In this document: piece by piece, positions 2,301-29,837 of the stretch
How the letters are laid out: the number at the start of each line of letters is the position of its first letter
Numbering within the stretch: position 1 is the first letter of the stretch
Source of the DNA: Coleofasciculus chthonoplastes F2-STO-03
Lineage (GTDB): Bacteria > Cyanobacteriota > Cyanobacteriia > Cyanobacteriales > Coleofasciculaceae
Direction: 5' to 3'
Length of the DNA stretch: 34,925 nt
Assembly (NCBI GenBank): GCA_040222015.1
Contig: JAVJWO010000172.1
Span: 1 to 34,925 of the forward strand
Notes under the pieces: generated by a model
The model's input: only the letters and a program-made list of their open reading frames with translations
Databases searched by the model: none
Told to the model about the DNA's origin: nothing
Translations under genes and position numbers: made by a program

Positions 2301-2517
2301 ATCGTTATTTATCATTTGTCATTTGTCTTAGTAAGAGTTTGAGGGCTATTTACACAATTTAATAGAGTTGAGTTTATTTCCACCAACTTACATGGCGTAG
2401 CACGTTGTCAATAGGAAACTTGAGTGTAGGGGGTGGTATGCTGCTGCTTAAATATCGTAGGATTGCCAATATTGTGTACATGCCAATCCCCAAAACAGAT
2501 AATCGCGAAGAACCATT

Positions 2518-3438
2518 ATGACGACTACGGTCAACCCAACACCCCGATTAGCCTCGCGCTTGGTTAATGGAATCCTTGCCATTAAACCTTTAGCTAATTT
2601 AGCCAAGCAGCAAGCTCGTAAGATGATTGTAAAGCGAGCGGAAAAAATTGGCGTACCTTGGACGAAACAGGTCAATGAGTTACGTTCTCTCGACTGGGAT
2701 AGTTATCTGAATCAAGTCCAAAACCCCCAGTTAACCTACCCGGATTATTATTTGCGTCCCTTCCATGCTTATGACCAGGGAAATCTTCAGTGGGATGCTG
2801 CGTTTGAACACGAAGTAGCGGCTTATGCTGTTCATGCCAATCTCTATCCTGAAGATAGGCTTCAAGGAGACGCGAAACTGCGACAGAGTTACCATGAGTT
2901 GGTGCAACAGCACGTTGCAACTGAGCCGCAAGATATTGTGGATCTGGGCTGTGGTGTGGGGATGAGTACCTTTGCCCTACAACAGATTTATCCCCAGGCA
3001 ACTATGACGGGTGTAGACTTATCGCCTTATTTTCTAGCTGTTGCCGAATATAAGTCCAAACAGCATCATACAGAAATTAACTGGAAACACGCGGCGGCTG
3101 AAGCGACAGGTTTACCGGATGCTTCCTATGATTTAGTCTCTATCTTCTTGGTATTCCACGAATTACCCCAAACGGCGGCAAAGGCAATCCTACGGGAGGC
3201 ACGGCGGTTATTACGTCCTGGTGGCTATCTTACCCTGATGGATATGAATCCTCAGTCTCAGGTGTATGCGACGATGCCAGCTTACGTTTTTACCTTATTC
3301 AAAAGCACTGAGCCTTACTTTGACGACTATTTTACCTTGAATATTGAGCAAGCGATCGCGGAAGCAGGATTCCAGCCACCAACTATCAAGCCGAATAGTC
3401 CCCGCCATCGGACAATCATTACCCAAGTCGAGACGTAG
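2518..3438 (+). CDS. Class I SAM-dependent methyltransferase
   Basis: IVDLGCGVG, GVDLSP, FHELP and RLLRPGG motifs. Confidence 0.92.
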   Translation: MTTTVNPTPRLASRLVNGILAIKPLANLAKQQARKMIVKRAEKIGVPWTKQVNELRSLDWDSYLNQVQNPQLTYPDYYLRPFHAYDQGNLQWDAAFEHEVAAYAVHANLYPEDRLQGDAKLRQSYHELVQQHVATEPQDIVDLGCGVGMSTFALQQIYPQATMTGVDLSPYFLAVAEYKSKQHHTEINWKHAAAEATGLPDASYDLVSIFLVFHELPQTAAKAILREARRLLRPGGYLTLMDMNPQSQVYATMPAYVFTLFKSTEPYFDDYFTLNIEQAIAEAGFQPPTIKPNSPRHRTIITQVET

Positions 3439-3454
3439 CACGCTACGTCTGAAC
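3427..3454. repeat. REP-like palindrome overlapping the methyltransferase stop codon
   Basis: gtcgAGACGTAGCacGCTACGTCTgaac. Confidence 0.7.
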
Positions 3455-3590
3455 CACCTACTCGTAGCAAAACTTAACATAAACCAATACTCGACATTCT
3501 TTCGAGGAGATCCCCGTCTCTGATAGACTTTTAGACTGGGGACAGTAAATAACACCAGGGAAAAACTAAGCAGTTGAGAGGAAAAGCTTC

Positions 3591-4631
3591 GTGCTAGAAA
3601 CTACGCTAGGACTAGAAATTATTGAAGTTGTCGAACAGGCAGCACTTGCCTCTGCCAAATGGATGGGCAAAGGGGATAAGAACACCGCTGACCATGTGGC
3701 AGTCGAAGCCATGCGGGAGCGGATGAACAACATTCACATGCGGGGTCGCATCGTGATTGGCGAAGGGGAGCGAGATGAAGCCCCGATGCTGTATATCGGT
3801 GAACAAGTGGGCATCTGTAACCAACCGGATGCGAAGAACTTTTGTAATCCCGATGAACTGATTGAAGTCGATATTGCCGTTGACCCTTGTGAAGGGACGA
3901 ACTTGGTGGCTTATGGGCAACCCGGTTCAATGGCGGTGCTAGCCATTTCTGAGAAGGGAGGGCTGTTTGCTGCACCTGACTTTTACATGAAAAAGCTAGC
4001 TGCGCCTCCTGCGGCTAAAAATCATGTCGATATCAATAAATCGGCAACAGAGAACCTGCAAATTCTCTCCGAGTGTCTGGATCGCGCAATTGAGGAACTT
4101 GTGGTCGTCGTAATGAAGCGCGATCGCCACAAAGGACTGATTGAGGAAATCCGCTCGGCTGGTGCGAGAGTTCGGCTAATTAGTGACGGAGATGTCTCTG
4201 CGGCTCTCTCTTGTGCCTTTTCCGGGACAAATATTCATGCTCTGATGGGTATTGGTGCTGCACCCGAAGGCGTTATCTCTGCTGCGGCGATGCGCTGTTT
4301 AGGAGGACATTTCCAAGGTCAGCTAATTTATGACCCAGCAACTGTACAGACGGGTTTGATTGGTGAAAGCAAAGAGGGGAACCTAGAGCGGCTCAAAGAA
4401 ATGGACATTCACGACCCTGATAAGGTCTACAATACTCATGAGCTAGCTTCGGGTGACACCGTGCTATTTGCCGCTTGTGGGATTACGCCGGGTACTTTGA
4501 TGGAAGGGGTACGACTCTTCCACGGGGGGGCACGGACTCAAAGTCTGGTTATTTCCACCCAGTCGAAGACGGCTCGATTTGTGGATACTGTCCATCTGTT
4601 TGATCAACCGAAGACCCTGCAACTGCGATAA
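3591..4631 (+). CDS. glpX: Class II fructose-1,6-/sedoheptulose-1,7-bisphosphatase
   Basis: [34 protein letters not shown] and GIGAAPEGV motifs. Confidence 0.98.
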
Positions 4632-4923
4632 ATACTGTAAATTTATCCATTGTTTGTTGCAGGATTTCTCCGCCTCGAATTCTAGTCATCGAGAGCAGAG
4701 AAAAGCGTTAAAGCCAGAGTATAAGCAATGATAATGCTACTTACTCTGGCTTAGCGTTGATTAACGGGCAAATCGATTTCCCCCAGGTAAAAAATTTCAT
4801 CTCTGAATCTGTGAACTTATGCCCAATTGTTCATCCCGTTCAGAAAAATTTCTCAATTTTCTTTATCTTTAAATACAAGCCTGATAGTTGACCCAACCCA
4901 ACGACAGAGATTTGGAGAACACA

Positions 4924-6210
4924 ATGAATATTGCAGTCGTAGGTTTAAGCCACAAAACAGCGCCCGTTGAAGTCCGGGAAAAACTAAGCATTCCCGAAGC
5001 CCAAATAGAAGGGGCGGTGCAACAACTCTGTAGCTACCCCCATGTTCAAGAAGTGGCGATCCTCAGTACCTGCAATCGCCTAGAAATTTATATTGTGGCG
5101 GCGGAAACGGAAAAGGGTGTTCGTGAAGTCAGTCAGTTCCTGTCGGATAACTCTCATGTACCCCTGCATCAATTACGCCCCCATTTGTTTATTTTGTTAC
5201 ATCAGGATGCGGTGATGCACCTGATGCGCGTCGCAGCGGGACTTGATAGTCTAGTCCTAGGCGAAGGGCAAATCTTATCTCAAGTGAAGCATACCCACAA
5301 AATCGGTCAGCAATATAAGGGAATTGGACGCCTGTTGAATCGACTGTTTAAACAAGCGATTACCGCCGGAAAGCGAGTCCGCACGGAAACCAGCATTGGT
5401 ACCGGGGCGGTTTCGATTAGTTCGGCGGCGGTGGAACTCGCCCAGATGGAAGTGCAAAACTTGGCGGCTTACCGAGTAGCAATTATCGGGGCTGGGAAGA
5501 TGTCGCGTTTGTTAGTGCAGCACCTGCTTTCTAAAGGGGCTGAGTCAATCGCCATTATCAATCGCTCAACTCGACGGGCGGAAGAGTTGACAAAGAAGTT
5601 TGAGAATGCTCCGATAACGGTACATCCTTTATCTGAAATGATGGAGGTAATTCCGGAGTCGGATATGGTGTTTACGAGTACCAGTGCGACGGAACCGATT
5701 CTGAATCGGGCTAAACTGGAAGACCATCTTGATCCCAATCGCTCCTTAATGCTATTTGATATTTCCGTACCGCGTAATGTGGATGCTGATGTCAATGAAC
5801 TTGAACAGGTTCAAGCCTTTAATGTGGACGACTTAAAAGCAGTGGTGGCGCAAAATACCGAAAGCCGCCGTCAGATGGCAATGGAAGCGGAAAACTTACT
5901 GGAACAAGAGGTAGAAGCGTTTGAGATTTGGTGGCGATCGCTAGAAACCGTGAGTACTATTAGTAGTCTACGGGAGAAAGTCGAAGGTATCCGGGAACAG
6001 GAATTAGAAAAAGCCCTATCTCGCTTAGGTTCAGAGTTTGCCGATAAACATCAAGAAATCATCGAAGCGCTGACACGGGGAATTGTCAATAAAATCCTCC
6101 ATGATCCGATGGTGCAGTTAAGGGCGCAGCAGGATATTGAAGCCAGACGCCAAGCGATGCAGACGCTGCAAACGCTGTTTAATTTAGAGATTGAAGAACA
6201 GTTTGGTTAA
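4924..6210 (+). CDS. hemA: Glutamyl-tRNA reductase
   Basis: [34 protein letters not shown] and DISVPRNV. The ATG at 4924 is preferred over the TTG at 4888. Confidence 0.98.
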
Positions 6211-6232
6211 GCGTTAGACCTGAATAAAATGG

Positions 6233-6272
6233 GGAGGGGGATACTGAGTAAATATCCTTCCTCTCTTTTTTT
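6233..6272 (+). terminator. Probable intrinsic terminator after hemA
   Basis: Imperfect stem gaggggGATA...TATCcttcctc followed by a T run. Confidence 0.55.
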
Positions 6273-6380
6273 AGGATAGCTAGTGCAAGAAATAAAAAAC
6301 TATACAAAATAGCGAGCGAGACGCCAATCCATTCATTTTATAATGGATTACCCACATCTTTCTTGACAATTATTCACCTC

Positions 6381-6449
6381 TGTAGGGGCGACCCGCTTAG
6401 CCTAATTAAAAACCCCAGTCCACTCAAGTAGCTCGGGTCGCCCTCCACA
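6381..6449. repeat. GTAGGGGCG REP-like inverted repeat
   Basis: tgtaggggcgacccg ... cgggtcgccctccaca. Confidence 0.8.
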
Positions 6450-6740
6450 CTTTCTAATGCCGTCGATCCCATCACCCGTTGCGGGTTGCTAAAGGATTCG
6501 CTGGTATCATAGTCTACAATCATCCGGCTGGCGCGATCGCTCTTGCTCCAAATAATCGCCTGATCACGACTCACGTCACCACTATCCACCCCGTAAGGGG
6601 TTTGTGGACGGATTTTATCTGAGGTGATCATCCCCGGTGCTGTACTCTGGGCTAATCCTGATTTCGATAACAGGTTAGCGGTGATCAATCCACCACTGGT
6701 TAAGGCGGAGGTAACCAGGAAGCGGCGACGGGTGATGAGT
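6450..6740 (-). pseudogene. phoD: PhoD-family alkaline phosphatase, N-terminal fragment
   Basis: Tat signal ITRRRFLV, then PYGVDSGDV..QAIIWSKSDRASRMIVDYDTSESF. It is cut at the REP and has no canonical start upstream of the RR motif. Confidence 0.8.
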
Positions 6741-6868
6741 GACTGATTTTTCCCTGCCCTAGATAAAAATGATGCCCCAAATGTGAACAGTAGAGCAAAT
6801 AATTCAATTAAACCTCAGCGTTGATGACTAGACAAAACAGACAAAAGTCTTTGTTCATCAGAGGTTCA

Positions 6869-6912
6869 GCTTGTTTGCGCCGTTGGTAAAGCTTGGTTGC
6901 GCCGTTGGTAAA
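6869..6912. promoter_or_regulatory. 22-bp tandem repeat upstream of phoD, possibly Pho-box-like
   Basis: gcttgtttgcgccgttggtaaa / gcttggttgcgccgttggtaaa. On the minus strand ATTTACCA, CTTTACCA and CTGAACCT recur at 22-bp spacing. Confidence 0.35.
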
Positions 6913-7337
6913 TTTACGATTGAATGTCCTCATGTTAAGCGCTTTTTTGTTAGAGAGTGAGTATCGCCTCTATAATTAACATGGTAGGCATCTGGCTCCC
7001 CGGAGTCAGGTGAGCCGACTCTAACGTGCAGTGTTTCCAGAAACGTGTCGGGTAAGCCAGAGTTATAAGACCTCAAACTGATCGAACGACAGTTATCGGT
7101 CAAGGTTATTTTTGAAAAGAAACAAGAATAGCTGATTCGTCGGGAAACTTCCTGTCGGTGAATTAGCGACTATCTTGGAAAAAATAAACAATGAACTCAG
7201 GTTCGATTGCCAGATAAAGAATAAGACAAGTTAGTGGGGTGCTGTTTTCAAGGCGATAGTTAATTAGACTTGTCTAAAAATTAGTCAAAGACCCTTTGAA
7301 TCGTGGGTTGACGTGTAATTTCTGGACGTGTCTAGTG

Positions 7338-9311
7338 ATGAAGAAAAATTCAACAGGGGCGCTGACAAAAACGATGGTGTCGGGTTCTCAAGACGCTTGG
7401 GACAATAAACCTCTAGGCGGACGCTATCACGTTATGGAAAAGCTAGGGGTCGGAGGGTTTGGTCAAACCTTCTTGGCGCGGGATATGCATTTGCCCGGTC
7501 ATCCCCAATGCGTCGTTAAAAAATTAAAACCTCAAGTGAGCGATGATGATGAGGAGGGGCTGCAAACGGCGAGACGCCTCTTCCAAACGGAAGCTCAAGT
7601 CCTCTATCGACTGGGTAATCATGAGCAGATTCCCCGGCTTTTGGCTCATTTTGAGGAAAATCACGAATTTTATCTGGCTCAGGAATATATTCAAGGACAA
7701 CCCTTAAGTAAAGAGATAGACTCTCATCTGACGTGGTCACAGGAAAAAGTGCTATCCCTCCTGCAAGATATATTGCAGGTACTAACATTTGTCCATCAAC
7801 AAAATGTGATCCACCGGGATATCAAGCCAGCTAATTTGATTCACCGCGCCGCTGATGGCAGAATTGTGCTGATTGATTTTGGTGCGGTGAAACAGGTTAG
7901 ATGTGAGTCGCTGAATCCGGAAACAGCGCTGACCAATGTGACGATTTCTATCGGCACTAAGGGATATATGCCCAATGAACAACTGGCAGGAAAACCTCGC
8001 TATAGTAGTGATGTTTATGCGGTGGGGATTATTGGGATTCAGTTATTAACGGGAATTCATCCCAAACATATTAAAGAAGACTCCGATACGGGTGAACTCA
8101 ACTGGCGCAAATATGCCAAGCAGATTAGTCCAGAATTTGGGGAAATTTTGGATAAGATGGTGCGCTATGATTTTCGCGATCGCTACTCGACAGCAGAAGA
8201 AACCCTACTAGCATTCCAGAGTTTACCCGCACCATTATTGGAGTCGGCGTCACCCCCCCAACCGTTAGCCCCTGAGTGTGAATTGCCGCCCCTGGTTGAT
8301 CCCCAAGCGCCGACGGATCAGGAAAGTCAAAATTTCCCCGATGATTCAGCCGAGACTCAGGCGTGGGAGGCGACACCAACGGAATCAACGCTGATTGAAA
8401 TCGAGGAGTCGAATAGCGAATCGTCCGCTAGTCAAACCCAAGACACCGGACGCACCCAAACCTCTCAGCCCACCCCGGCTCAGACGGATGCTACCGTATC
8501 CCTAAGTCAACCTCAGGACGTTGAACCAACCGCAACGGTGTCAACTGCAGCCAGAAGCCATGGATTTCGGCAATGGTTGATGCAGCCTTGGACAATTGCC
8601 ACGATCGCGATCGCGGTTAGTTCCACGGTTGCTGTCACCCTGATTCTACTCCCCTCTCAATTGAGCCAGAAGTCTCAAGTTGAGGATGTCCCGGTGGAAA
8701 GCCCAAGCCCAACTCCTTCTCCTTCTCCCTCGCCAACCCCCGAACCCACGGCTGAATCCTTGCTCGCCGAAGCCGAAGACTTAAGAAAAGCTGGAGACTA
8801 TGAGGAAGCAATTGAGGTTTACAATCAGGCGATCGAACTCCAATCTGACTTAGCCCCTGCTTATTGGGGACGGTGCGAGAGTCTCAATCAATTAGGACAG
8901 CCTGAACAAGCCCTAGTCTCTTGTAATGACGCCCTCGCCTACCAATCCGATTATGCCGAAGCCTTAGTCAGCAAAGCCGATGCCCTACGCCAACAAAACC
9001 AGATTATAGACGCCTTGCGACTGTATGGACGGGTAGCGGAATACTATCCCGATTTTGCCCGAGGTTGGATTCGCTATGGCATAGCACTGCAAGGGGTGGG
9101 ACGTTCCGCTGAGGCGGTTCAAGCGTTAGACAAAGCGATTGAATTGGATCGGAACTCCGCCGATGCTTGGGCAACTCGCGGTGAGGCGCTCATGGCGTTA
9201 GGGCGCACCACGGAAGCGATTCCTTCTCTGGATAAAGCCCTGCAACTCGAACCCGATCATGAAAAAGCTGCCAGCCTGCGTGAAAAGGCGAGGGAAACAC
9301 TAGGGCGTTAG
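7338..9311 (+). CDS. Hanks-type Ser/Thr kinase with a TM helix and C-terminal TPRs
   Basis: GVGGFG, VVKKL, HRDIKPAN, DFG and GTKGY; hydrophobic PWTIATIAIAVSSTVAVTLILL; PS/PT linker; TPR helices. Start uncertain (7296, 7338 or 7374). Confidence 0.93.
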   Translation: MKKNSTGALTKTMVSGSQDAWDNKPLGGRYHVMEKLGVGGFGQTFLARDMHLPGHPQCVVKKLKPQVSDDDEEGLQTARRLFQTEAQVLYRLGNHEQIPRLLAHFEENHEFYLAQEYIQGQPLSKEIDSHLTWSQEKVLSLLQDILQVLTFVHQQNVIHRDIKPANLIHRAADGRIVLIDFGAVKQVRCESLNPETALTNVTISIGTKGYMPNEQLAGKPRYSSDVYAVGIIGIQLLTGIHPKHIKEDSDTGELNWRKYAKQISPEFGEILDKMVRYDFRDRYSTAEETLLAFQSLPAPLLESASPPQPLAPECELPPLVDPQAPTDQESQNFPDDSAETQAWEATPTESTLIEIEESNSESSASQTQDTGRTQTSQPTPAQTDATVSLSQPQDVEPTATVSTAARSHGFRQWLMQPWTIATIAIAVSSTVAVTLILLPSQLSQKSQVEDVPVESPSPTPSPSPSPTPEPTAESLLAEAEDLRKAGDYEEAIEVYNQAIELQSDLAPAYWGRCESLNQLGQPEQALVSCNDALAYQSDYAEALVSKADALRQQNQIIDALRLYGRVAEYYPDFARGWIRYGIALQGVGRSAEAVQALDKAIELDRNSADAWATRGEALMALGRTTEAIPSLDKALQLEPDHEKAASLREKARETLGR

Positions 9312-9312
9312 A

Positions 9313-12300
9313 ATCATACTATTAGGTGAAGAAGGTGATGGAAAAACCTGGAGTGCTGCATCGTGGCTGTGTCACCGAATCAAAACTGATCAGCAATTCC
9401 CTCCAGTTTTGTTCTTATCATCAACGAATGTCGATAGTAATGAACCAGAGACTTTATTGTCGGGATTTCTTTCTAGCCCTCGCCGCTTTCCTGTTTGGCA
9501 GCAAGAGCAATGGAACAAGCGGATAGCTCGGTGGACACAGAGAGATACCAGTCACGCTCCTATATTTATTTTAGTCCTTGATGGTATTAACGAGCGACGG
9601 GATTGTAACTGGTGGCGGACACTCCTTGAGAAACTTATGGGACAGCCGTGGGGTAATCAAGTGGCTGTTTTGATTACCTGCCGTTCGGCTTATTGGCAGC
9701 GAAACTTTGAGCCACTGGGTTATATACAAGCGGATAAGTATGAGTTGCCTGCTTATAGCGATCGCGAATTACAAGAAGCTCTAGATTATTATAATCTACG
9801 GCGTTCAGATATTCAAGCTCTCCTACCTCTTATTCGTAAGCCCCGCTACTTTTATCTAACGGTTAAATATCGCGAACGTATTGAAGAAAGCGGAGATGTA
9901 ACCATTGCTCGTCTTATTTATGAAGATTGGCGAGATCGATTGGAGATAAAGCGAGACATTCCATTAAATGATCAGTCGTTTCAATCGTGTATTCGATATT
10001 TAGCTGCTAAATACCAAGATGGAAGCAAATATGTCACGGAACAGGATATTGGTAACGCCTTACCTTTATCTAGCGATAAGCTAACCATACTAGAAGAACT
10101 GCGAACGGGTGGAATTCTGGAAAATAAAAGAGGAAAATATAAAGTTAATGAACAGTTTTTAAGATATGGCTTCGCTCTACTGCTAATTGATGAACTCGAA
10201 GAAGAGAGTGAAAATCAAGAGCAAGACTTAACAGATGTTATTGCTAAATGGCTTGAGCCACAAGCTGAGATGGATATCGAGGCGGCTATTTGTGGGTTGG
10301 CAACGCTTTACGCCTTACATTTACGTGATTATCCAAGAGAGGCGAAGTTTGCACTTTTACAGATATTAGTCAATAGTCAGAATCCCGGACCAACCGTAGA
10401 AACAGAGTTTATTGCCTATTTACCGATTGAACCACAACTCTATATTGACCTTGCCGAAATAGTATGGTCGGATTCTCGTGAAAATGTATGGGGTCAAGAA
10501 CTGCTAATGCGGTCTTTTTTGCGTTGGCGTGAATCACCAAAAGTTATATCTGAACTCCACTCAGCCTTTGAAAGTTGGTTGGGATTTGTTCATCTCTACG
10601 GATTTTCGTGGCAACGGTGCAATTCAAGACAAAGGGCTGAAGAAATCAAGCAGGAAATTTGTAATCGCATTGGAGAACAACTCGAACCTGGACAAGAATT
10701 TACCCTGGGTGAGTACAGATTCACGGCTATCAAAGATGATGGGTTACTGCGTCTTGGACGAGTCGCACTGGCTGTCATCTCGCACCTACCACGCGGTAAT
10801 TTTATACATATCATTGCTACAGGATGTTTGGCTGAAGCAATAATGGGAGAACCCGATAAGTATAACCTTTTTGCTTGGCTTTTCCGTACTGCGTCGGCAT
10901 CAGTTTGGATAGCAGTTAAGGATGAAGTTGAACAGCTTCTCGAAGTCAATCATATCGTGGCTCAACAGGCGGCTTATCGACTCCTTTCCTTTGAGGGTAG
11001 TCCAGACGCTTATCAATTGCAGCAAAGTTTGCCACAGGATTTATTTCCGCCTCATTCGATTCTTGAAGAATACAAAGAAGATCCCTGTACTTCTGGGTTT
11101 CAATGGACTCAATCTGACTGTGAAACTTGCCTGACTAGAGAAGATATCACCCTCGAACAAATCGCTAGACAAATCAAGGAACATTGTATTAATCCAAACT
11201 TATCAGTTCCCAGTGATTTAGGACAACGTCTTGCGCCATTAACTGAAACTATATCTATCCAACAAGTAGTAATTAATCTTGGTCAAACTATAGATGATGT
11301 CAAACTTAAGGATTATGAACCAGCGCTCTGTGCTTATGCCCCAAACGCTATAGCCGAGTTAGTGCGACGTATTACTCGCCAAATCGATGAACGTGAAGAC
11401 TTTGAATTACGGCAACTGAGTATAAGACTAAAAAAATATGCACTTATTTTTGGCACGGAAGAACAGGATAGTATATATCGTGCTTGGACTCGTCTACAGG
11501 ATAGAGCAGACTCATGGAATGAAGCTGAAAAATATGCTGAAAGTTTACTGTTTAGGTTAGTTTTGAAAAATCATGATGCTGAGGAGCAACTTGTCTCCCT
11601 CCTGAGGCGACATGAAAAATCAGAAAACTTAGTATCTCATGAAAAGTTATTTCTTCAAGTTACAAATTGGGATAGTGTACGCACGTACTTTCAATTTAAT
11701 TTAAATACTATAAGTATTCAGCGTATACTCTGGTTTATATCGATTCACCCAGAAAACCTGCCACAAGACATTCTCCATCAGCAAATAGTTCCCTTGTTAG
11801 CTCATGAGGATAGTCTTGTGCGTTTGCATATTCTACGAATTCTGTATTTCCGAAAAGACAAAACAGCCATTGAAACAGTTGTTGATAGTAAATGGACTTA
11901 TAACACCAATAATAGCGACGTAGAAAACCAATGGGGTAGCTTGTTACTGGGTAAGTATGCCACTTCTTTGCCATATTCAGAGTTAAGCCATCGTATCCAT
12001 CCAATTTATTTAGGATATGCTGTTCAATGTCGAGGTATGAACAAGCATGAGGTTAGTCAGTATGCAGAAGATATTCAACTTATTTGGTCAAGCTTCACTC
12101 AAGAAAGACCTGATTTACTTCCGAGTGATATTTCTCTTTCAGTCACAGCGAGTCTTGGGGAAGATGACGATATTGAGATGAGTTATTGGAGTGCTTCATC
12201 TAAAAATTCTTCTTCTCCGTCATTAAGAATATTCAGTAGAGGTGCGGCTTGGGGAGGAATTGGCAAAGGCAATATTCAAGACTGGGTAGAAAGAATGAAG

Positions 12301-13293
12301 CAAAATATACAAGAAATGACGTCGCCAAATCCTGACCAATATTACCAAAAACAATGGCAAGCTGCACAAGAGACAGTTAGAAAACAAGAAAATGATGGAA
12401 ATTTTTGGTTTGCTAAACGCTTTTTTCCTCATGCTTTAGAGCAAATTTTGAGTGAACGTTCAGATTTGGTGGAACAGTGGCTCCAAGCCATATTTACCGA
12501 CGATATCGAAAAGATACAACAGTTACATCTAGTTAGTTCGTTTTACGAAGCCCTCTGCGAAGTTTTACTAAAACAACCGAACCCCGACAAAGGGATACAG
12601 TTATATTGGCAACTTCAAAAGCTAGAGAGGAGAATTGGGATTGAGGATAAGCATTCTGGGTTTGAATTCCTTGATTATGCCTTGTTTCAATCTCCTTGCG
12701 TAGATTCTACAAAACAGGCTTGGAGAACCAAGTTAGAACAATGTAAAACTGACAGAGAATTGTTAGAACTAGCTATTCTGGCTCAGTCCGGAAATGGTCG
12801 TGATTGGCTTTGGTTAAATATTGAATCAGGAATTCAATCACTAGCCCCTATTGAAAAGTCTCGTGTGATCACATTATTGGCATTTATACAAGAATCGAAA
12901 GCTGGCGAATGGCTGAATTCGCTGGTGCAAGAACAACCCGATACCTGGCTCAAAAAATTAGCGGAGATATCCCATCACCGTTGGCAAAAGAATAATTGGG
13001 CGATACACTGGTTCTGTCAGTTTATCAATGCTGATGATGATGTGATATCTTGGACATCATTTCGCTTATTTTTGCGTTGTGTCGATAGTCGTTTTTGGGT
13101 TTGGCGAGATCAGGTTAAAGCTGAAGGTTCTGTCAGCACGTTTAACCAAAAGCGTCGCCAATTCCTAGAGGATAATTTAGAAACCATCAAACATAGGATA
13201 CAAAAAAACGAGGAACCATTAGAAAAGAATTATTTGGGACATAAGATATTATTTGGTCAAGCTTTTCCTTGGATGTCAGATCCACTCCAGTAG
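9313..13293 (+). CDS. STAND-class (NACHT/Avs-like) P-loop NTPase with a long helical C-terminal region, apparently 5'-truncated
   Basis: The frame is open from 9304. It contains IILLGEEGDGKT (Walker A, upstream of the called TTG at 9409), ILVLDGINE (Walker B), VLITCR (sensor-1) and LIRKP. It is AT-richer than its neighbours. Confidence 0.75.
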   Translation: MILLGEEGDGKTWSAASWLCHRIKTDQQFPPVLFLSSTNVDSNEPETLLSGFLSSPRRFPVWQQEQWNKRIARWTQRDTSHAPIFILVLDGINERRDCNWWRTLLEKLMGQPWGNQVAVLITCRSAYWQRNFEPLGYIQADKYELPAYSDRELQEALDYYNLRRSDIQALLPLIRKPRYFYLTVKYRERIEESGDVTIARLIYEDWRDRLEIKRDIPLNDQSFQSCIRYLAAKYQDGSKYVTEQDIGNALPLSSDKLTILEELRTGGILENKRGKYKVNEQFLRYGFALLLIDELEEESENQEQDLTDVIAKWLEPQAEMDIEAAICGLATLYALHLRDYPREAKFALLQILVNSQNPGPTVETEFIAYLPIEPQLYIDLAEIVWSDSRENVWGQELLMRSFLRWRESPKVISELHSAFESWLGFVHLYGFSWQRCNSRQRAEEIKQEICNRIGEQLEPGQEFTLGEYRFTAIKDDGLLRLGRVALAVISHLPRGNFIHIIATGCLAEAIMGEPDKYNLFAWLFRTASASVWIAVKDEVEQLLEVNHIVAQQAAYRLLSFEGSPDAYQLQQSLPQDLFPPHSILEEYKEDPCTSGFQWTQSDCETCLTREDITLEQIARQIKEHCINPNLSVPSDLGQRLAPLTETISIQQVVINLGQTIDDVKLKDYEPALCAYAPNAIAELVRRITRQIDEREDFELRQLSIRLKKYALIFGTEEQDSIYRAWTRLQDRADSWNEAEKYAESLLFRLVLKNHDAEEQLVSLLRRHEKSENLVSHEKLFLQVTNWDSVRTYFQFNLNTISIQRILWFISIHPENLPQDILHQQIVPLLAHEDSLVRLHILRILYFRKDKTAIETVVDSKWTYNTNNSDVENQWGSLLLGKYATSLPYSELSHRIHPIYLGYAVQCRGMNKHEVSQYAEDIQLIWSSFTQERPDLLPSDISLSVTASLGEDDDIEMSYWSASSKNSSSPSLRIFSRGAAWGGIGKGNIQDWVERMKQNIQEMTSPNPDQYYQKQWQAAQETVRKQENDGNFWFAKRFFPHALEQILSERSDLVEQWLQAIFTDDIEKIQQLHLVSSFYEALCEVLLKQPNPDKGIQLYWQLQKLERRIGIEDKHSGFEFLDYALFQSPCVDSTKQAWRTKLEQCKTDRELLELAILAQSGNGRDWLWLNIESGIQSLAPIEKSRVITLLAFIQESKAGEWLNSLVQEQPDTWLKKLAEISHHRWQKNNWAIHWFCQFINADDDVISWTSFRLFLRCVDSRFWVWRDQVKAEGSVSTFNQKRRQFLEDNLETIKHRIQKNEEPLEKNYLGHKILFGQAFPWMSDPLQ

Positions 13294-13306
13294 GATAGTA
13301 GCATAC

Positions 13307-13568
13307 CTAATTTAGTCGATTAGCATTACATCCAGGAACCGTAGGGGCGCACGCTCCGTGCGCCCATCAAACTGTAAAATCTATCCCATAATTTTATTCA
13401 GAACGGTGCGTTACGCTTTGCTAACGCACCCTACTGGCTAATTGAGTAGATTAGCATTACATCGATAAACCGTAGGGGCGCACGCTCCGTGCGCCCATAA
13501 AACCATAAAATCTATTCCATAATTTTAGTATTCAGAACGGTGCGTTACGCTTCGCTAACGCACCCTAC
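13307..13568. repeat. Two ~131-bp tandem units, each with a pair of convergent REP hairpins (BIME-like)
   Basis: Units 13307-13434 and 13438-13568 each carry gtaggggcgcacgctccgtgcgccc and ggtgcgttacgcttYgctaacgcaccctac. Confidence 0.88.
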
Positions 13569-13701
13569 AATTGGCTTAAAATGGTGCAGATAAGGGTAAA
13601 ATCTAGCTGTAAACATTCAACGCTAGGACAGGTTTTGTTGATCAATTATCGGTTACAATCTTTGCTAACGGCGTCAACCTGCCTCAACGGGATTGATTAG
13701 T

Positions 13702-14712
13702 TTAAGGTATGAATTTGGATGTCTCAGCGGCTTGAATCTCCTGTGCTACGGCGGCTAACACCGCATCATGAATCGCCCCATTACTGGCAATAATCCCCTG
13801 ATTGTTGAACAGTTTAGTTCCACAGGCAAAGTCTAAGGGTTTACCATACATATCGGTGACTCGTCCCCCGGCTTCTTCCAAGACAACGACACCAGCGGCA
13901 TGATCCCATATATTTTGCCGTTTTGAGGACTCCAGGGGAAACGGTAAGCGGATGTAGAGATCGGCTTCCCCTCGGGCAATAATGCCGTATTTGACCATGG
14001 AATCAATCTGGAGGGAAGGGGTGATAAAACCAAGGGATTGAGTGATAGCGGCTTGCAATTCGGGGTTCCCATGAGACGATTCTACACTTTGGACTAATCG
14101 GAGAGACTCGATGCGATCGCATTCATTGACACGGATTGTCTGAGGTTGATCTCCAGCTAAGGGGATTAAGGTGGTTCCTTGTCCTTTGACACCGACAAAC
14201 AGAACGCCGCGATCGCCATCCGGTTGATTGGGATGAATGGGAATCGCCGGACATCCTAATACCCCCAGTTTCACTTCACCGTCTTCAATTAACGCTAAGG
14301 CGATCGCGTAATTTTCACCTCGGACATAACCTTTTGTCCCATCAATCGGATCAACAGTCCAATAGCGATCTGCCACTTGACCCGTACCCCGATCAATCCA
14401 GGTGATAATGGTTTCCGGTGTAGCCTCAGCAATCTGGTGTTTAACATAATGAGTCACCCCTGTCAACTGTTGCGTCATCGCCGGTTGTCGCAACAAGCTA
14501 GAGTTTTCCTCACCCACGATGGGATCACCGGGAAACGCCTCGGCTAATACCCGACATATAACCGCTTGTGTGCCAAAATCAGCCACAGTCACCGGAGAGC
14601 GATCGGGTTTGGTTAGGGTTAAGGAACCCTCTTCCTGACGCACTTGTTCACATAATTGAGCCGCAGCCGTTACAGCTTGGATGGCAATTTGTTTTTCTCG
14701 CTGGTAGGACAT
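13702..14712 (-). CDS. 3'(2'),5'-bisphosphate nucleotidase (HAL2-like, inositol monophosphatase family)
   Basis: SPVTVAD, IVGEE, WTVDPIDGTKG and IWDHAAG motifs. Confidence 0.92.
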   Translation of the reverse strand: MSYQREKQIAIQAVTAAAQLCEQVRQEEGSLTLTKPDRSPVTVADFGTQAVICRVLAEAFPGDPIVGEENSSLLRQPAMTQQLTGVTHYVKHQIAEATPETIITWIDRGTGQVADRYWTVDPIDGTKGYVRGENYAIALALIEDGEVKLGVLGCPAIPIHPNQPDGDRGVLFVGVKGQGTTLIPLAGDQPQTIRVNECDRIESLRLVQSVESSHGNPELQAAITQSLGFITPSLQIDSMVKYGIIARGEADLYIRLPFPLESSKRQNIWDHAAGVVVLEEAGGRVTDMYGKPLDFACGTKLFNNQGIIASNGAIHDAVLAAVAQEIQAAETSKFIP

Positions 14713-21392: not shown

Positions 21393-22064
21393 TTACAACA
21401 ATCCCCGATAATGAATAAACACTAAAATAGCCGCCCAGGAACCCAAGGCGACTTTGACGGCAACTAAAATATTGAGCAGAGGGATAATCCCACCACTAAG
21501 CAGTGTGCCTAAATTTCCATGGGGTAACTCGACTCCAGCCAGAGTGATCACGGCGAGGACAATGAAAACCAGAACCGAAACCTTCTCCCATTTAGAAGCG
21601 TGCCAACGCTTATAGATTCCCTGCATCCACTCCGTTGATGAGGTAATCGCCACCAAACCGATCGCGGTTCCCCCAGCTACCCCAGCGGCAAACCCACCAC
21701 CAGGGCTAAGATGTCCCCGAATCGCTAATTCGATACCCACCAACGCGGAAATGGTTGCTCCCAGACGCGCCAAAATCATCGAGGGTTGATCGCTAAATTG
21801 ATAGACAGTACAGAACGGCTTTTCATCCGCCAGCAGAAACCGCACCCCCATAATCGCGATCGTAAATACAACCACTTCAAAGATCGTGTCATACAACCGA
21901 TTCCGGAAAATGATACCCGAAACGGTATTCGATACCCCACTATCTTGGACAATGGCTTCGACGATAGAGATATCCGACAAATCCGGTGCCGAATTGGACA
22001 TATTGGGCGTGATTAGGAATATGACGTACAGCGCTATCCCCGCTGCAATGTAAACCCATTTCAT
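21393..22064 (-). CDS. mrpB: Mrp Na+/H+ antiporter subunit B
   Basis: RLYDTIFE and GHLSPGGGFAAG. Confidence 0.9.
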   Translation of the reverse strand: MKWVYIAAGIALYVIFLITPNMSNSAPDLSDISIVEAIVQDSGVSNTVSGIIFRNRLYDTIFEVVVFTIAIMGVRFLLADEKPFCTVYQFSDQPSMILARLGATISALVGIELAIRGHLSPGGGFAAGVAGGTAIGLVAITSSTEWMQGIYKRWHASKWEKVSVLVFIVLAVITLAGVELPHGNLGTLLSGGIIPLLNILVAVKVALGSWAAILVFIHYRGLL

Positions 22065-22669
22065 TAATGTTCCTCTCCTGAATCTGGTGTATTGATATAG
22101 GTTAAATGTGTCGCGGGTGACGACAGTTCGGTTCGCATGATGTCATAGAGGCGTTGAACCCGAGTCGCGGTGTGATAAGATGGCGTCTCAGACTCTGGTA
22201 CTGTTGGGTCTTGAGGCTCTAGTTTGGCTTGATGCGATCGCATACAGGTGGCATGAATTTCTTTCTCCATCAGCGCCCGATGCAACGCCTGCTGATCCGT
22301 GTACGGGACTACCTCGACACGCATATAATGTTTGCTAAAAATGCTGCGTAAATCATCCATCAGTTCCCCAAAATGCCGCTCAACTTCGTTCGTAGTCGGC
22401 GCTTTAGCGCCACTCTCTTCAAGTACACCCAGACGCAGGGTTAAGGATGAACGCACCGCCACCGCATACAGCGTAATCGCCAGCATAGTACCCACCAAGG
22501 CTTCAGTCAACGCCACATCCGCCGCGCCCAAAACTGCATAAACCAATGCCGCCACTGCTCCCAAAATACCCCGAATCACCAAAGCATGGTAAGGATTCAC
22601 CTGAAAAACTAACATACAGGCAGCCAAAGGCAGCAGCGCAATAATCACATAAATATCACTCTGATTCAT
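22064..22669 (-). CDS. Mrp antiporter DUF4040-domain subunit (MrpA C-terminal/MrpB-like)
   Basis: LGAADVALTEALVG, operon position; probable ATG at 22669. Confidence 0.85.
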   Translation of the reverse strand: MNQSDIYVIIALLPLAACMLVFQVNPYHALVIRGILGAVAALVYAVLGAADVALTEALVGTMLAITLYAVAVRSSLTLRLGVLEESGAKAPTTNEVERHFGELMDDLRSIFSKHYMRVEVVPYTDQQALHRALMEKEIHATCMRSHQAKLEPQDPTVPESETPSYHTATRVQRLYDIMRTELSSPATHLTYINTPDSGEEH

Positions 22670-22946
22670 AGTCAAACTCCTCCCCACTACTCGAACAATA
22701 TGCCAACACATACCCCAGCACCGTATTCCAAATCGCCAACGAAATAATGGCGAGGATCAATAGGGGCCATTCACTGGGTATTTTTAGCAACAATCCGACG
22801 ATAATACTCATTGAACCCAGAGTATCTGCCACCGAAAGAGTATGCAGTTTAAAGAGTACAGATCGGTGACCAATCAACGGAAAGGTTCCCCAAAACCAGA
22901 AGACAATTCCTAACCCGATACAGATATAACTAAGCACGTTGATCAT
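22656..22946 (-). CDS. mrpG: Mrp antiporter subunit G
   Basis: KLHTLSVADTLG; probable ATG at 22946. Confidence 0.85.
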   Translation of the reverse strand: MINVLSYICIGLGIVFWFWGTFPLIGHRSVLFKLHTLSVADTLGSMSIIVGLLLKIPSEWPLLILAIISLAIWNTVLGYVLAYCSSSGEEFDYESE

Positions 22947-23211
22947 AGTAGGACTCTTTCGCTGAATCATTGATTCGTTTAAGGATATGTGCCAACAACA
23001 TTAATCCGGCATTCCCCACACTCAGGATAATTACCCCGACAACTCCGATCATCCAGTCATCCCGTATGACAGAAACAACCAGAATCATAATTGAGGTTTT
23101 GGTGGCAATACTGGCAAATGCCAACATTTTTTGCCAAATATCATCATCCTGCCATGCCTCATACATGGGGATAAGTAACGCCAAAATCATGCTAATTAAA
23201 ATCCACTTCAT
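22930..23211 (-). CDS. mrpF: Mrp antiporter subunit F
   Basis: Small 3-TM protein overlapping mrpE and mrpG. Confidence 0.75.
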   Translation of the reverse strand: MKWILISMILALLIPMYEAWQDDDIWQKMLAFASIATKTSIMILVVSVIRDDWMIGVVGVIILSVGNAGLMLLAHILKRINDSAKESYYDQRA

Positions 23212-23597
23212 ATTCGTTTCCTCCGGCTAATTCTGTGAACTTCATACGACCCTTCCTCGTGGTATTTCAAAACAATGGTTTTGGGTGTAAACGTAATTAA
23301 AAATATATCGAGAAAAATCAGTCCGGGTGTACGCTGGGGTTTGACTCGTTCCATAATTACATCTTCGTACTTATGAGGACGGAGCATAATTTCAAATGCC
23401 TCAAAATACGCCTGGGGAATCGCCACAAGTACCTCACCCAAAACTCGCAACCAATCCTTTAAGGATTCCGGAGTTTTGGGGCGTCCCGGCAAAAGAAAGG
23501 CAATGGCGATGCCAATGATGATATTTGGTACACTCAGACTAGCGGTGAGCAAAAACCAGATGGTTAATCGCAATATCAAATTCAGATGTCCAATCAT
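23208..23597 (-). CDS. mrpE: Mrp antiporter subunit E
   Basis: ITFTPKT motif followed by a conserved VH. Confidence 0.88.
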   Translation of the reverse strand: MIGHLNLILRLTIWFLLTASLSVPNIIIGIAIAFLLPGRPKTPESLKDWLRVLGEVLVAIPQAYFEAFEIMLRPHKYEDVIMERVKPQRTPGLIFLDIFLITFTPKTIVLKYHEEGSYEVHRISRRKRI

Positions 23598-23599
23598 AT

Positions 23600-23648
23600 T
23601 TTGTCATTTGTCCTTTGTCATTTGTCCTTCGTCATTTGTCCTTCGTCA
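23600..23648. repeat. Heptamer tandem repeat (STRR type), 7 units
   Basis: TTYGTCM x7, ending 2 nt upstream of the mrpE start. Confidence 0.9.
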
Positions 23649-23714
23649 CTGTGGGGACAATAGCTAGAATAAAATTGACAACATACATTTTTCTACTTAT
23701 AGCGCCAAGACAAT

Positions 23715-25148
23715 TCAAGCGAATACCATTCCGAACAGCAACAGCAACATTAAACTCATCAGCCCAATCAGATGATCGAATTGCTCAAGCATACGAGGGA
23801 GTTTGATGGCAAGTCGTTTGAAAATCAAAAAGTATGCCAACCATCCGAGTGCGATAGTTGCCAGTTGTTTCACGATATTCTTAACTGTATACGCCTCGTA
23901 ATACACAACATTTGATAAAATTAAACCCCCGATTAATATGATCATTGCTAACCAGAAACCGGGCTTTACATTTCCCTCTCCTTGTGGGTTGTGAGGCAGA
24001 AAAATTAATTTGGCAAAGGATATTGCCGTTCCCAAAGCCGCAATATTCATGCCAATCACTTGCCAGTCCAAAAGATTTTCCATCGTCAAAGCCTTTGCTC
24101 CAAAACCCGATAATAAGGGAAAGCCGGAGATAGAGAAACTAGCGATGACTAGGGCAATCCAAATCGAGGTATTAATCGGCTTATGATCCAGTTCTTTGAG
24201 GTTACGGCTAGGTAAGGTTCCCGCTATTAAGAACAGCGCTGATTTAACTAACCCGTGGGTTAGCGCATAAAAGCCACCAAATTTGGGTACAGCTAGGACA
24301 AAGCCTAACTGCGAAATCGTGTGAAATGCCAACATTCGTTTGCTATCTTTTTCAAAGACGGCATAACCGACTCCTAGCACCGCTGTGCCTAAGCCGAAGA
24401 GTCTGACAATGGGATCAATCTCTGGCACCATCAAAGCAAAGCGCATCAGGGGAAACACCCCGGCTTTTACCACAACCCCCGATAGCAACGCCGACACCGG
24501 TGTCTCGGATTCCGAGTGGGTTAAGGGTAACCACAATCCCGATACAAAGATACCCCCCTTACTCAACAGTCCCAGAAAAATCAAGGCAATTGCCTCGATG
24601 GGAGCATTGCTTAAACCCTCATAAGCAAAAGAAGAATTCGCCTGATACACCAACGCCGCACCCATCAGATAAAACAGCATTGCTACATTGCTGAACAACA
24701 GATAGCGCAACGCCACCCAAATCGAACGATTCGTTCGGGGATAGGCAATTAACAGAAATGCGGCAATACCAATGACCTCTAACGCCACGTATAAGCTGAT
24801 GAAATCGGCACAGACAAAGGCGGCATTAACACAGCCATGTAAAATAATCATCTGTGTATAAAAAAAAGCCGTCTTATTGGTGTGCCAACAATAGAGGATA
24901 ACGGCGGTTGTGACTAGGGCATTGGTCAGTATAAAAAAACCGCTCAATTCGTCAGCGATTAAGGTAACGCCGAAACTATCCAATAATTCCAGGGTTAATG
25001 GCGATTTAGCCATAAATAGCTGCGATGCATATCCAGCCGAAACCAGGGCGACGCCCAGTGCGAGATATCGGTCAAGTTTAGGGAACAGATAAATGCTGAA
25101 CCCCACAAACATCGGTAGTGCGATCCAGACAATCGTCAATGTACTCAT
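23715..25148 (-). CDS. mrpD: Mrp antiporter subunit D (NuoM/N-like)
   Basis: SLYVALE, WLPLTH, SALLSGVVVKAG, KRMLAFHTISQLG and HGLVKSALF. Confidence 0.92.
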   Translation of the reverse strand: MSTLTIVWIALPMFVGFSIYLFPKLDRYLALGVALVSAGYASQLFMAKSPLTLELLDSFGVTLIADELSGFFILTNALVTTAVILYCWHTNKTAFFYTQMIILHGCVNAAFVCADFISLYVALEVIGIAAFLLIAYPRTNRSIWVALRYLLFSNVAMLFYLMGAALVYQANSSFAYEGLSNAPIEAIALIFLGLLSKGGIFVSGLWLPLTHSESETPVSALLSGVVVKAGVFPLMRFALMVPEIDPIVRLFGLGTAVLGVGYAVFEKDSKRMLAFHTISQLGFVLAVPKFGGFYALTHGLVKSALFLIAGTLPSRNLKELDHKPINTSIWIALVIASFSISGFPLLSGFGAKALTMENLLDWQVIGMNIAALGTAISFAKLIFLPHNPQGEGNVKPGFWLAMIILIGGLILSNVVYYEAYTVKNIVKQLATIALGWLAYFLIFKRLAIKLPRMLEQFDHLIGLMSLMLLLLFGMVFA

Positions 25149-25507
25149 GGGGTATTGTGCTTCTCAATCTCGCTGCTTTCTAAGGTGGGATGATCCCGTG
25201 CTAGCTTCATCACACCGACTAGCATCAGCGCTTGAATCGAAAAGCCGATCACAATTGCGGTTAAGATCACCGCTTGAGGAACTGGATCAGAATAAGCGCC
25301 ATTTTCGATGTTGGCAATAATCCCCTTTTCGACGGAAATAATCGGTGTAAACAAGGCTTCTCCTTTGCGTGATGCGATCAGCACGTAATAGGCAATAACC
25401 CCCGTACTCATCACATCCATAGAGATGATCTTCATCACCAGATTTTTTTTCAGGATGATGCCGAAAAATCCGCACAGGATGGTGGCAAATATGCAGGCTT
25501 CTAACAC
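25145..25507 (-). CDS. mrpC: Mrp antiporter subunit C
   Basis: KNLVMKII and DPVPQAVILTAIVIG. Probable GTG start at 25507. Confidence 0.92.
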   Translation of the reverse strand: MLEACIFATILCGFFGIILKKNLVMKIISMDVMSTGVIAYYVLIASRKGEALFTPIISVEKGIIANIENGAYSDPVPQAVILTAIVIGFSIQALMLVGVMKLARDHPTLESSEIEKHNTP

Positions 25508-25676
25508 GGGTATGCTGTCCTGGAAAAAGGTGCTAAAACATTTATAGCACGTTTTAATAGTGCTAACCAAGGCAGACACTATTGAAAAGTGTCAATGCCA
25601 ACCATAGACTCATACCACACCAACGGATTGATTGGAACAGGGGCAATGATGATTAGTCATTCGTCATACTCAAGGG

Positions 25677-28064: not shown

Positions 28065-29837
28065 TCAAACATTTACCCGCATCTGAGAAAAACGGATAAA
28101 CTTAGCCATAAGTTTGCGTTTCTGGAACGGGGATTTTTTAGTCAATAGAGTCTGAAATAGGGTTAAACCCCGCTTCTGCCATTCCTGGGCTGCTGTGTCT
28201 TGGTTTAAACCCAATAAGATGCGAATCAGGTTTTGTAGAACCTCTAAATGCCATTCAGGATAGGTGTCTGGGGTCAAGATAATCAAGGCTTGGTGATATT
28301 CAACTACGGCTTTCTGCCAATACTCCTGGTAATTTTGTTGGTACTTTCCTTCCTGATAGTGGGCATTTCCTATTGCTTGATGTAATCGTCCCCAACCTTC
28401 GGGGTGAGTGTCTTGGCGACAATGGTTTAAGCCTTGCTGATACGATAACAATTCCCCTCGATAACCGTATTGAGTCTCAATGGGATTAGATCCGATTGGG
28501 GAGACATGGGGAAATTGTAACGGTACAACAGCCGCCGCTTCGGGGTTATAGTTCCAGGAATTTCCAAGGACAATTCCTCGGTTTATCCAAGCTTGGTGCA
28601 AATCGGGTTTAATTTGAATCGCTTGATCAAACGATGCGATCGCCTGTTCATAGTCTCCTAACCGAAACAGCGCTACACCCCGGTTATGGCAAGCGTTGTG
28701 GAAGTCAGAGTTGATTTGAATCGCTTGATCATAATTCGCGATCGCCTGTTCATATTCCCTTAACTCGGCTAGCGCTACCCCCCGGTTGTTCCAAGCGTCG
28801 TGGAAGTCAGAGTTGATTTGAATCGCTTGGTGATAATTCGCGATCGCCTCTTGCTTCTCTCCTAAATCTGACAGCGCATTACCCCGATTCGTCCAAGCTT
28901 GGTAAAAGTCGGGTTTGATTTGAATCGCTTGATCATAACTCGCGATCGCCTGTTCATATTCTTCTAACTTCACCAATGCATTTCCACGGTTGTACCAATA
29001 TTTGTGGTTATCAGATTTTAGTTCAATGGCTTTATCAAAAGATACCAGCGCTTTTTCCTTTTCCCCTAACTTCGCCAATACATTCCCCCGATTTTGCCAA
29101 ACTTCGTGATTATCGGGTTTTATTTCAATGGCTTTATCAAAAGATGTCAGCGCCTGTTCATATTCCCCTAACTTCACCAAGGCATCACCCCGATTTTGCC
29201 AAACTTCGTGATTATCGGGTTTTAGTTCAATGGCTTTGTCAAAAGATACCAGCGCTTTTTCCTTTTCCCCTAACTTCGCCAATACATTCCCCCGATTTTG
29301 CCAAGCTTCGTGGTTATCGGATTGGATTTCAATGGCTTTATCAAAGGATGTGATAGCACTGAGAAAATTATGATCTGCAAATTGCTGATTCCCTCGATTC
29401 AACCATACTTCTGCTTCATCAGTTTCTGCATTTTCGCTTTTTCTCTCGTCTTCTTCACTTTTCCCCGCAGGTTTCGCCAATAAATCCCTGCCAATATCTG
29501 CGGCAATTTCCCCCAATTCCCCACACCCCAATCGACTCAATTGTAGCAACTGCCAAGCTAACCGATGATCCGCCTCTGGCAATTGCTGCAACTGCTGCCC
29601 ATACTCCAGCAGCCATGCTCTAAAATAGCGATCGTTGATCCGATGTCCCAAATGTTGCGATACCTGTTCTGGGTTCCATCCCTGACTCACTCCAGTTAGC
29701 AGTTGCTCAAATAGCTGCTGATAGTCTGCATCACTGAGACGTTGAAGTTTTACCCGTCGATGTCTTCTCCGTTTAACGCAGGGTGGTAAGATTGGCTGAA
29801 TCAGACGCACTAGCCACCGCCAAAACCGCTTAACCAT
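28065..29837 (-). CDS. Tetratricopeptide repeat protein, possibly C-terminally truncated
   Basis: About 9 tandem 34-aa TPRs (W.NRG..L..LG...EA...FD.AI) encoded by near-identical 102-bp units. Confidence 0.9.
   Translation of the reverse strand: MVKRFWRWLVRLIQPILPPCVKRRRHRRVKLQRLSDADYQQLFEQLLTGVSQGWNPEQVSQHLGHRINDRYFRAWLLEYGQQLQQLPEADHRLAWQLLQLSRLGCGELGEIAADIGRDLLAKPAGKSEEDERKSENAETDEAEVWLNRGNQQFADHNFLSAITSFDKAIEIQSDNHEAWQNRGNVLAKLGEKEKALVSFDKAIELKPDNHEVWQNRGDALVKLGEYEQALTSFDKAIEIKPDNHEVWQNRGNVLAKLGEKEKALVSFDKAIELKSDNHKYWYNRGNALVKLEEYEQAIASYDQAIQIKPDFYQAWTNRGNALSDLGEKQEAIANYHQAIQINSDFHDAWNNRGVALAELREYEQAIANYDQAIQINSDFHNACHNRGVALFRLGDYEQAIASFDQAIQIKPDLHQAWINRGIVLGNSWNYNPEAAAVVPLQFPHVSPIGSNPIETQYGYRGELLSYQQGLNHCRQDTHPEGWGRLHQAIGNAHYQEGKYQQNYQEYWQKAVVEYHQALIILTPDTYPEWHLEVLQNLIRILLGLNQDTAAQEWQKRGLTLFQTLLTKKSPFQKRKLMAKFIRFSQMRVNV

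Follow-up and report, generated by a model that had tools for sequence, protein, structure and literature searches.

The window analyzed here is a contig of 34,925 nucleotides (nt) from the cyanobacterium Coleofasciculus chthonoplastes F2-STO-03 (JAVJWO010000172.1), in which positions 9320 to 13293 of the plus strand constitute the 3΄ 84% of a gene for a protein of ∼1570 amino acids (aa) that combines an Mrr-like nuclease, a STAND NTPase and a helical sensor. This stretch is very likely a recently beheaded and non-functional copy of a single-gene antiphage receptor resembling the Avs proteins. Its missing effector results from a deletion, not from design, and the original prediction, which had proposed an Avs-like sensor that had either lost its effector or signals in trans, was right in the first of these alternatives: the effector was lost by a recent deletion at 9319/9320. 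The features of the truncated gene are as follows.

9320–13293, plus strand: 5΄-truncated nuclease-STAND-sensor gene, with no internal stop or frameshift
9319–9320, no strand: deletion junction, apparently blunt, with ∼255 codons and upstream DNA gone
9312–9319, plus strand: 8-nt spacer from the kinase side, giving non-native in-frame ATC and ATA codons
9325–9348, plus strand: Walker A motif GEEGDGKT, found exactly in 43 of 98 full-length representatives and the commonest form in the family
9565–9684, plus strand: LVLDGINE and LITCR, in invariant or nearly invariant alignment columns
9320–10401, plus strand: remaining STAND module, a partial nucleotide-binding domain (NBD) with helical and winged-helix domains, from alignment of the full-length model (residues ∼187–620) with NLRP9, NLRP3 and NOD2
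10402–13290, plus strand: α-solenoid sensor, ∼960 aa, its start placed by three TIR fusions; model of aa 401–1329
11572–12471, plus strand: sensor block exchanged between alleles (aa 757–1056, 300 codons), marked by a drop in identity

Reading frame, motifs and composition

The frame of the remnant is open from 9304 to 13290 (1329 codons) and ends with a stop codon at 13291–13293. The open reading frame (ORF) list opened it only at TTG 9409, and the Walker A motif that had been predicted upstream of this codon was indeed seen at 9325–9348, as were LDGINE and LITCR after it at 9565–9684. In terms of STAND NTPases, LVLDGINE is the Walker B motif and LITCR is sensor-1-like. The gene had been placed from 9304 or 9313; the open frame was correct, but positions 9304–9319 lie outside the gene, being the end of the kinase gene and the 8 spacer bases, and gene-derived letters begin at 9320. 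The sole Pfam domain of the remnant protein was NACHT (PF05729) on aa 4–133, a marginal match (E = 2.6e-6, 27.8 bits against a cut-off of 26.7). The AT-richness noted earlier was confirmed, as the GC content of the remnant is 40.5%, compared with 45.4% for the genome, and is equally low in only 3.5% of 1827 equal-sized tiles. The single HIP1 site reported at 9758 was counted again; however, its scarcity was rejected as a sign of transfer because it is not significant (genome tiles average 3.1 sites, and 21% contain one or none).

Deletion junction and what was removed

We compared the contigs of four sequencing runs with the window. One of them (X2) covers only positions 8477–9175, short of the junction. 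The contigs of the other three start matching exactly at 9320 and carry other DNA before it (X1, 1043 nt; X3, 288 nt; X5, 1125 nt), which presumably encodes the head. Since a head needs ∼760 nt and X1 and X5 carry more, upstream non-coding DNA would also be gone from the window. The kinase contig of X1 equals the window up to 9319 and then continues with 48 different letters. Both sides of the join abut without overlap, with no shared repeat for an assembler to collapse. A Logan protein identical to aa 112–1329 lies on a contig of 11,011 nt, and the repeat-bounded stretch 2357–13367 of the window, from which the head is absent, has the same length of 11,011 nt. This contig is a second assembly, probably of the same strain's reads, rather than a second strain. 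Because this second assembly spans the join, an assembly error is improbable, and the join is probably real. The exact 28-nt junction-side pattern had no match in metagenome contigs. As a separate observation, the X5 contig (depth 8.6) is one base short at window position 11692, which would shift the frame of the allele in that population.

Relative to an intact allele (P0152), the deletion removed residues 1–256, that is, the nuclease, the linker and the part of the NBD before the P-loop, along with the start codon, and the kinase-side spacer was joined to the codon two before Walker A. In a STAND NBD, the part before the P-loop helps to hold the nucleotide base. The invariant residues Q220, R234 and W244 lie within the lost part; NACHT structures align from residue ∼187–195 of the intact allele, and residues ∼187–256 are absent from the remnant. 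In the window copy, an N-terminal effector fused to the NTPase is absent and the NBD is incomplete. The remnant has its first in-frame ATG only at 9637, downstream of both Walker motifs, and ATC 9313 and ATA 9316 derive from the spacer, so that no canonical start lies ahead of Walker A. We found no promoter-like site before the remnant and no terminator between it and the kinase gene. Neither a free head nor a second family member was found in the host genome (99.99% complete), which makes the previously suggested signalling in trans unlikely; the start and the part before the P-loop are deleted as well.

Two further candidates were rejected. A kinase-STAND fusion by frameshift needs a +1 shift at the kinase stop, where no slippery site was visible by eye; it is also disfavored by the membrane helix that precedes the TPRs of the kinase, and the join is a deletion. 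Among the 240 homologues having a Walker A match, the motif lies at residue 200 or beyond in 222 and before residue 150 in 10. The sole homologue called from just before Walker A (P0021/P0278) is not naturally headless, being a full-length gene with a frameshift and its head in the other frame; the nine others look like partial calls. At locus L127 (3215–7599), a frameshift immediately ahead of Walker A, beside an A-run, divides a member in two; this member is identical in two metagenome contigs and represents either a pseudogene or phase variation.

Folds of the head, the NTPase and the sensor

The first 711 aa of P0152 were modeled (pLDDT 88.8). The head aligned with AspBHI (Z 11.3, root-mean-square deviation (rmsd) 3.1, 135 aligned), MspJI (Z 11.1, rmsd 3.2, 138 aligned) and AF1548 (Z 12.3, rmsd 3.4, 138 aligned), and in 51 sequences its residues D48 and E62 are invariant and K64 is nearly so. 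The STAND module aligned with NLRP9 (Z 13.2, rmsd 11.9, 343 aligned), as well as with NLRP3 and NOD2, and the top Foldseek match of the head and NTPase together was Avs4 (E = 3e-12, TM 0.34). The STAND fold that had been predicted was thus recovered both by Foldseek and by structure alignment of the intact-allele model. The sensor model of aa 401–1329 (929 aa) is almost wholly helical (pLDDT 88.7, pTM 0.89), and the family accordingly possesses a helical C-terminal sensor of at least 400 aa. Its matches were generic only (importins and HEAT/ARM proteins, Z up to 9.7, TM <0.3), and no Avs structure was among the listed matches, an absence that does not exclude such a likeness. A single-sequence search of the PDB gave no useful match.

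Homologues and their effector heads

We searched 1.84 billion representatives (50% identity) and obtained 1001 matches at E ≤0.001, some of which are more distant STANDs; the best 150 were listed. Most of the long homologues have 1500–1600 aa and align to the window protein from their residue ∼250. Ninety-eight of the 150, having at least 1400 aa and a Walker A match, were taken as full-length representatives. Their heads are variable, as the original prediction had expected of an Avs-like effector-STAND-sensor family: nuclease in 81 (Mrr-like; 80 assigned by clustering and one by eye after a mis-cut), TIR in 11, CHAT in 4, trypsin in 1 and unassigned in 1. EAD10 heads also occur in the family. 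Together with the folds, these heads show an effector-STAND-sensor architecture with defense-type effectors. In P0101, P0114 and P0132, a TIR domain is joined straight to the sensor without an NTPase, and these proteins are 32–35% identical to P0152 residues 619–1568.

A genome scan with the family alignment yielded 89 relatives, and the 80 best, which were listed, come from cyanobacteria, Chloroflexota, Desulfobacterota, Acidobacteriota, α, β and γ proteobacteria and others. A scan of genome contigs with the single protein gave no match. The family matched 12 plasmid records and no phage record. Of the 51 further genomes examined from the host's family, only one, that of a congener, had a clear piece. 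The spread of the family is wide and patchy. When 32 and 25 proteins of the family were compared with PADLOC 2.0.0 and NCBIfam 20.0, respectively, only single domains matched, and the window protein had no match at all; in PADLOC, 5 of 31 homologues weakly matched Avs2 in the NTPase only, and one matched Avs1b in the trypsin head only. In the protein atlas, the whole protein fell into unnamed clusters only, with sensor scores <0.9.

Defense genes near the homologues

At 36 of the 80 listed loci, chosen for their long flanks, the scan took in 238 proteins encoded no more than 3.5 kb from the family gene, after 5 gene-fragment ORFs had been dropped. Defense marks (restriction-modification, toxin-antitoxin, TIR, SIR2, Lamassu-type, TPR-S, Schlafen or KAP) were found at 16 of the 36 loci, and Hachiman genes are also among the neighbors of family loci. 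Of twenty random 8-kb stretches of the host genome used as a control and scored with the same list, in which Uma2 was not counted, one carried a defense mark, or three under a lenient count (Fisher P = 0.002 or 0.04, respectively). Homologues are therefore enriched beside defense genes relative to this single-genome control, in line with the defense association predicted earlier. The site in the window is set between housekeeping-type genes and not in a defense island. At L055 and L087, members lie within type I restriction-modification operons, after hsdM and hsdS, and in L087 ahead of hsdR. The host genome itself contains, at L119 (5049–7999, G000:C52), a row of Trypco1, trypsin-EAD9, EAD9-inactive STAND and AAA genes.

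Flanking genes and history of the site

The features that flank the remnant are as follows.

7296–9311, plus strand: Ser/Thr kinase-membrane helix-TPR gene (Pfam Pkinase and TPR; hydrophobic 19-mer at aa 434)
13307–13568, no strand: two units of a GTAG-led palindromic repeat, with direct and inverted repeats
13702–14712, minus strand: inositol monophosphatase-family gene (Pfam), the conserved right flank and next gene after the site in 4 of 7 congener loci

The kinase gene has 88–95% DNA identity in all 7 congener loci, with similarity stopping at 9311, and is a conserved flank rather than part of the system. The GTAG-led repeat, which is REP-like, has ∼107 genome copies of its 12-nt core, and an Rfam search of positions 9000–14000, this repeat included, gave no match. 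Congener genomes have different contents behind the kinase: the site is empty in G008; the last ∼15 codons of the gene are kept just behind the kinase stop in G001 (L017); ∼70 internal codons are kept between REP-like repeats in G004 (L014); and, by eye, a two-component cluster is found in G007 and G005, a transposase-like insert in G002 and other genes in G003. The gene was lost three times at this site, each time with different ends, and repeats related to the GTAG-led palindrome, which border the remnants in congeners, may drive such deletions. Remnants persist in two of the eight congeners, so the gene must have been resident at this site for long, since before these species split. The horizontal acquisition suggested earlier fits the family, with its patchy spread, but not a recent arrival here.

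The full-length alleles P0152, P0251, P0254, P0280, P0154 and P0155 are 82–96% identical to the remnant from the junction to the end, and each has ∼250 extra N-terminal residues; P0152, P0251 and others are labeled Coleofasciculus by their sources, and P0280 is on a 7.8-Mb contig. The intact allele has the accession WP_446348539.1. Over aa 757–1056, identity to P0152 and P0251 drops to 53–71%, compared with 85–100% elsewhere, and identity to P0155 is 77–88%. P0280 has the block type of the window and is 95.8% identical overall. The exchanged block has the highest AT content within the gene, and it overlaps with the HEAT-like repeats as well as with the only loop that was modeled with low confidence.

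No defense-type Pfam family was found on the other 27 window proteins scanned, one of which is a transposase. Elsewhere in the window, we observed four HIP1 sites spaced exactly 102 nt apart in a TPR gene (28636–28942), corresponding to its 34-codon repeat, a minus-strand cluster of Mrp/Mnh sodium-proton antiporter genes (21393–25579) and a DDE transposase close to the contig end (33370–34290).

Proposed function and alternative explanations

In the Avs7 model (Lee et al. 2026, PMC13581612), an ADP-bound resting protein binds its target, exchanges ADP for ATP, oligomerizes and cleaves DNA. By analogy with Avs4 and Avs7, the intact gene would encode a protein of ∼1570 aa with an Mrr-like PD-(D/E)xK nuclease, a NACHT-like STAND NTPase and an α-solenoid sensor. 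At rest, it would be bound to ADP until the sensor binds a phage protein; the NTPase would then exchange ADP for ATP and oligomerize, and the nuclease heads would cleave DNA, with cell death ahead of phage maturation. In the host genome, the deletion fused the base lying 8 nt past the end of the kinase gene to the second codon ahead of Walker A. In PMC13581612, none of the 13 new Avs families still killed once its effector had been removed or mutated. The remnant lacks a head and a normal start, and its NTPase is clipped; it should therefore do nothing.

Several observations weigh against this interpretation. The 3.97 kb of the remnant are free of stops and frameshifts, and its private changes at conserved sites (3/20) are in no clear excess over those of intact alleles (7/66 and 5/82), so that decay beyond the deletion is not evident; relaxed selection since the deletion was sought in these changes and not detected. 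With no terminator after the kinase gene, read-through transcription is possible, and ATC and ATA codons follow in frame just past the kinase stop; RNA runs contained only 5–6% of the sequence words. The letters upstream of 9320 in the X1, X3 and X5 contigs are known by length, and their coding for a head is inferred. Furthermore, 20 of the 36 loci lack a defense mark (11 have mobile-element marks only and 9 have neither), the list of marks was fixed after the first batch had been seen, the control came from one genome, and no antiphage test of the family was found in the literature reached. The intact frame and the lack of excess private changes can be attributed to the deletion being recent. 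Given the post hoc list and the one-genome control, the neighbor enrichment is support, not proof.

Reinitiation past the kinase stop, at ATC 9313 or ATA 9316, might still yield a headless protein, which would either act in trans as a sensor or bind a phage protein as a decoy. The intact frame and the possible read-through would permit this, the sensor is whole and models well, and the spacer chances to give hydrophobic residues for the strand ahead of Walker A. However, the genome offers no free head or second member as a partner, three invariant residues were lost with the part before the P-loop, no canonical start precedes Walker A, a conserved headless form is absent from the 240 homologues, and the other scraps at the same site are plain decay. 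We thus regard such a product as improbable. The chance that the junction is an assembly error and that the strain has the whole gene appears slimmer still. Three other runs hold extra DNA at 9320, and X2, which covers only 8477–9175, does not reach it; nevertheless, the Logan contig has the exact length of the headless stretch, the assembly contains no head elsewhere, and the join has no repeat that could collapse. It is also unlikely that the family consists of STAND signaling or other conflict proteins (for example, for anti-plasmid defense or multicellular self-recognition) rather than antiphage receptors. The restriction of PADLOC and NCBIfam matches to single domains, the loci with mobile-element marks only (11/36) or with none (9/36), and the existence of EAD10 and CHAT heads are compatible with that idea, but nuclease or TIR heads are present on 92 of the 98 representatives, members are inserted in type I restriction operons (L055 and L087), Lamassu-type, TIR, SIR2 and Hachiman genes lie nearby, and the effectors agree with the criterion by which STAND clades are called defensive in PMC13581612.

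For the host genome, a beheaded receptor gene is of little consequence, and its proper annotation would be that of a pseudogene rather than of a sensor without an effector. The family, found in many phyla and missed by PADLOC and NCBIfam, matters more. We tentatively raise the possibility that the 960-aa sensor is an uncharacterized portable receptor for phage proteins with a new trigger, placed behind a STAND module with nuclease, TIR, CHAT, trypsin or EAD10 heads or fused to TIR, that exchange of the 300-residue block might retune its recognition, and that the gene might be lost repeatedly at one repeat-rich site. Natural alleles that differ mainly in one sensor block are already at hand as a pair with which specificity could be mapped, and the TIR fusions that lack an NTPase pose the question of how the sensor activates an effector without a STAND module. 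The site, moreover, preserves the history of a costly defense gene in one genus, with its gain, an exchange of alleles and three separate losses.

Comparison with known systems

Avs4 of E. coli (PDB 8dgf), a portal sensor, likewise has an Mrr-like nuclease head, a STAND module and a helical sensor at similar length, and aligns with the first 711 aa of the intact allele (VIA Z 11.8, rmsd 13.9, 410 aligned). It differs in that its profile matched none of 32 family proteins and its PDB chain gave no sequence match, and it differs from the window copy in that the latter is headless. Avs2 (PDB 9o4e), a terminase sensor, has the closest NTPase by sequence (family profile positions 251–407, E = 5e-5), although the likeness is confined to the NTPase, with no sensor match. 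The full-length profile match of Avs1–5 in PADLOC-DB 2.0.0 was not found in the family. The bNACHT proteins (Kibby et al., 10.1101/2022.07.19.500537), of which bNACHT25 has an Mrr-like head, similarly combine a NACHT-type module with variable N-terminal effectors and are common in cyanobacteria; in contrast, the Pfam NACHT match of our family is marginal, and no NACHT-associated C-terminal Pfam domain was detected in its sensor. A literature search found no paper naming the family, most subscription journals lying outside its coverage. The kind of system is known, and the family itself is apparently without an antiphage assay in the literature reached.

Avs7–24 and the 90 sensor clusters described in PMC13581612 also have an effector-STAND architecture with a helical sensor of at least 400 aa and swapped heads. 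Six accessions, one motif and five organism names were absent from seven data files of that paper, mostly source data, and none of its named organisms was among the 80 listed of the 89 loci or among 22 relatives of an alphaproteobacterial member, which is a weak indication. Avs16 and Avs21 carry an N-terminal E-x-K nuclease motif (E66/K68 and E69/K71, respectively; PMC13581612), which the E62/K64 of our family resembles. Avs7 and the STAND-free Dsr1 have a common sensor (PMC13581612), and the TIR-sensor fusions without an NTPase parallel this sharing. The family may well be one of these 90 sensor clusters.

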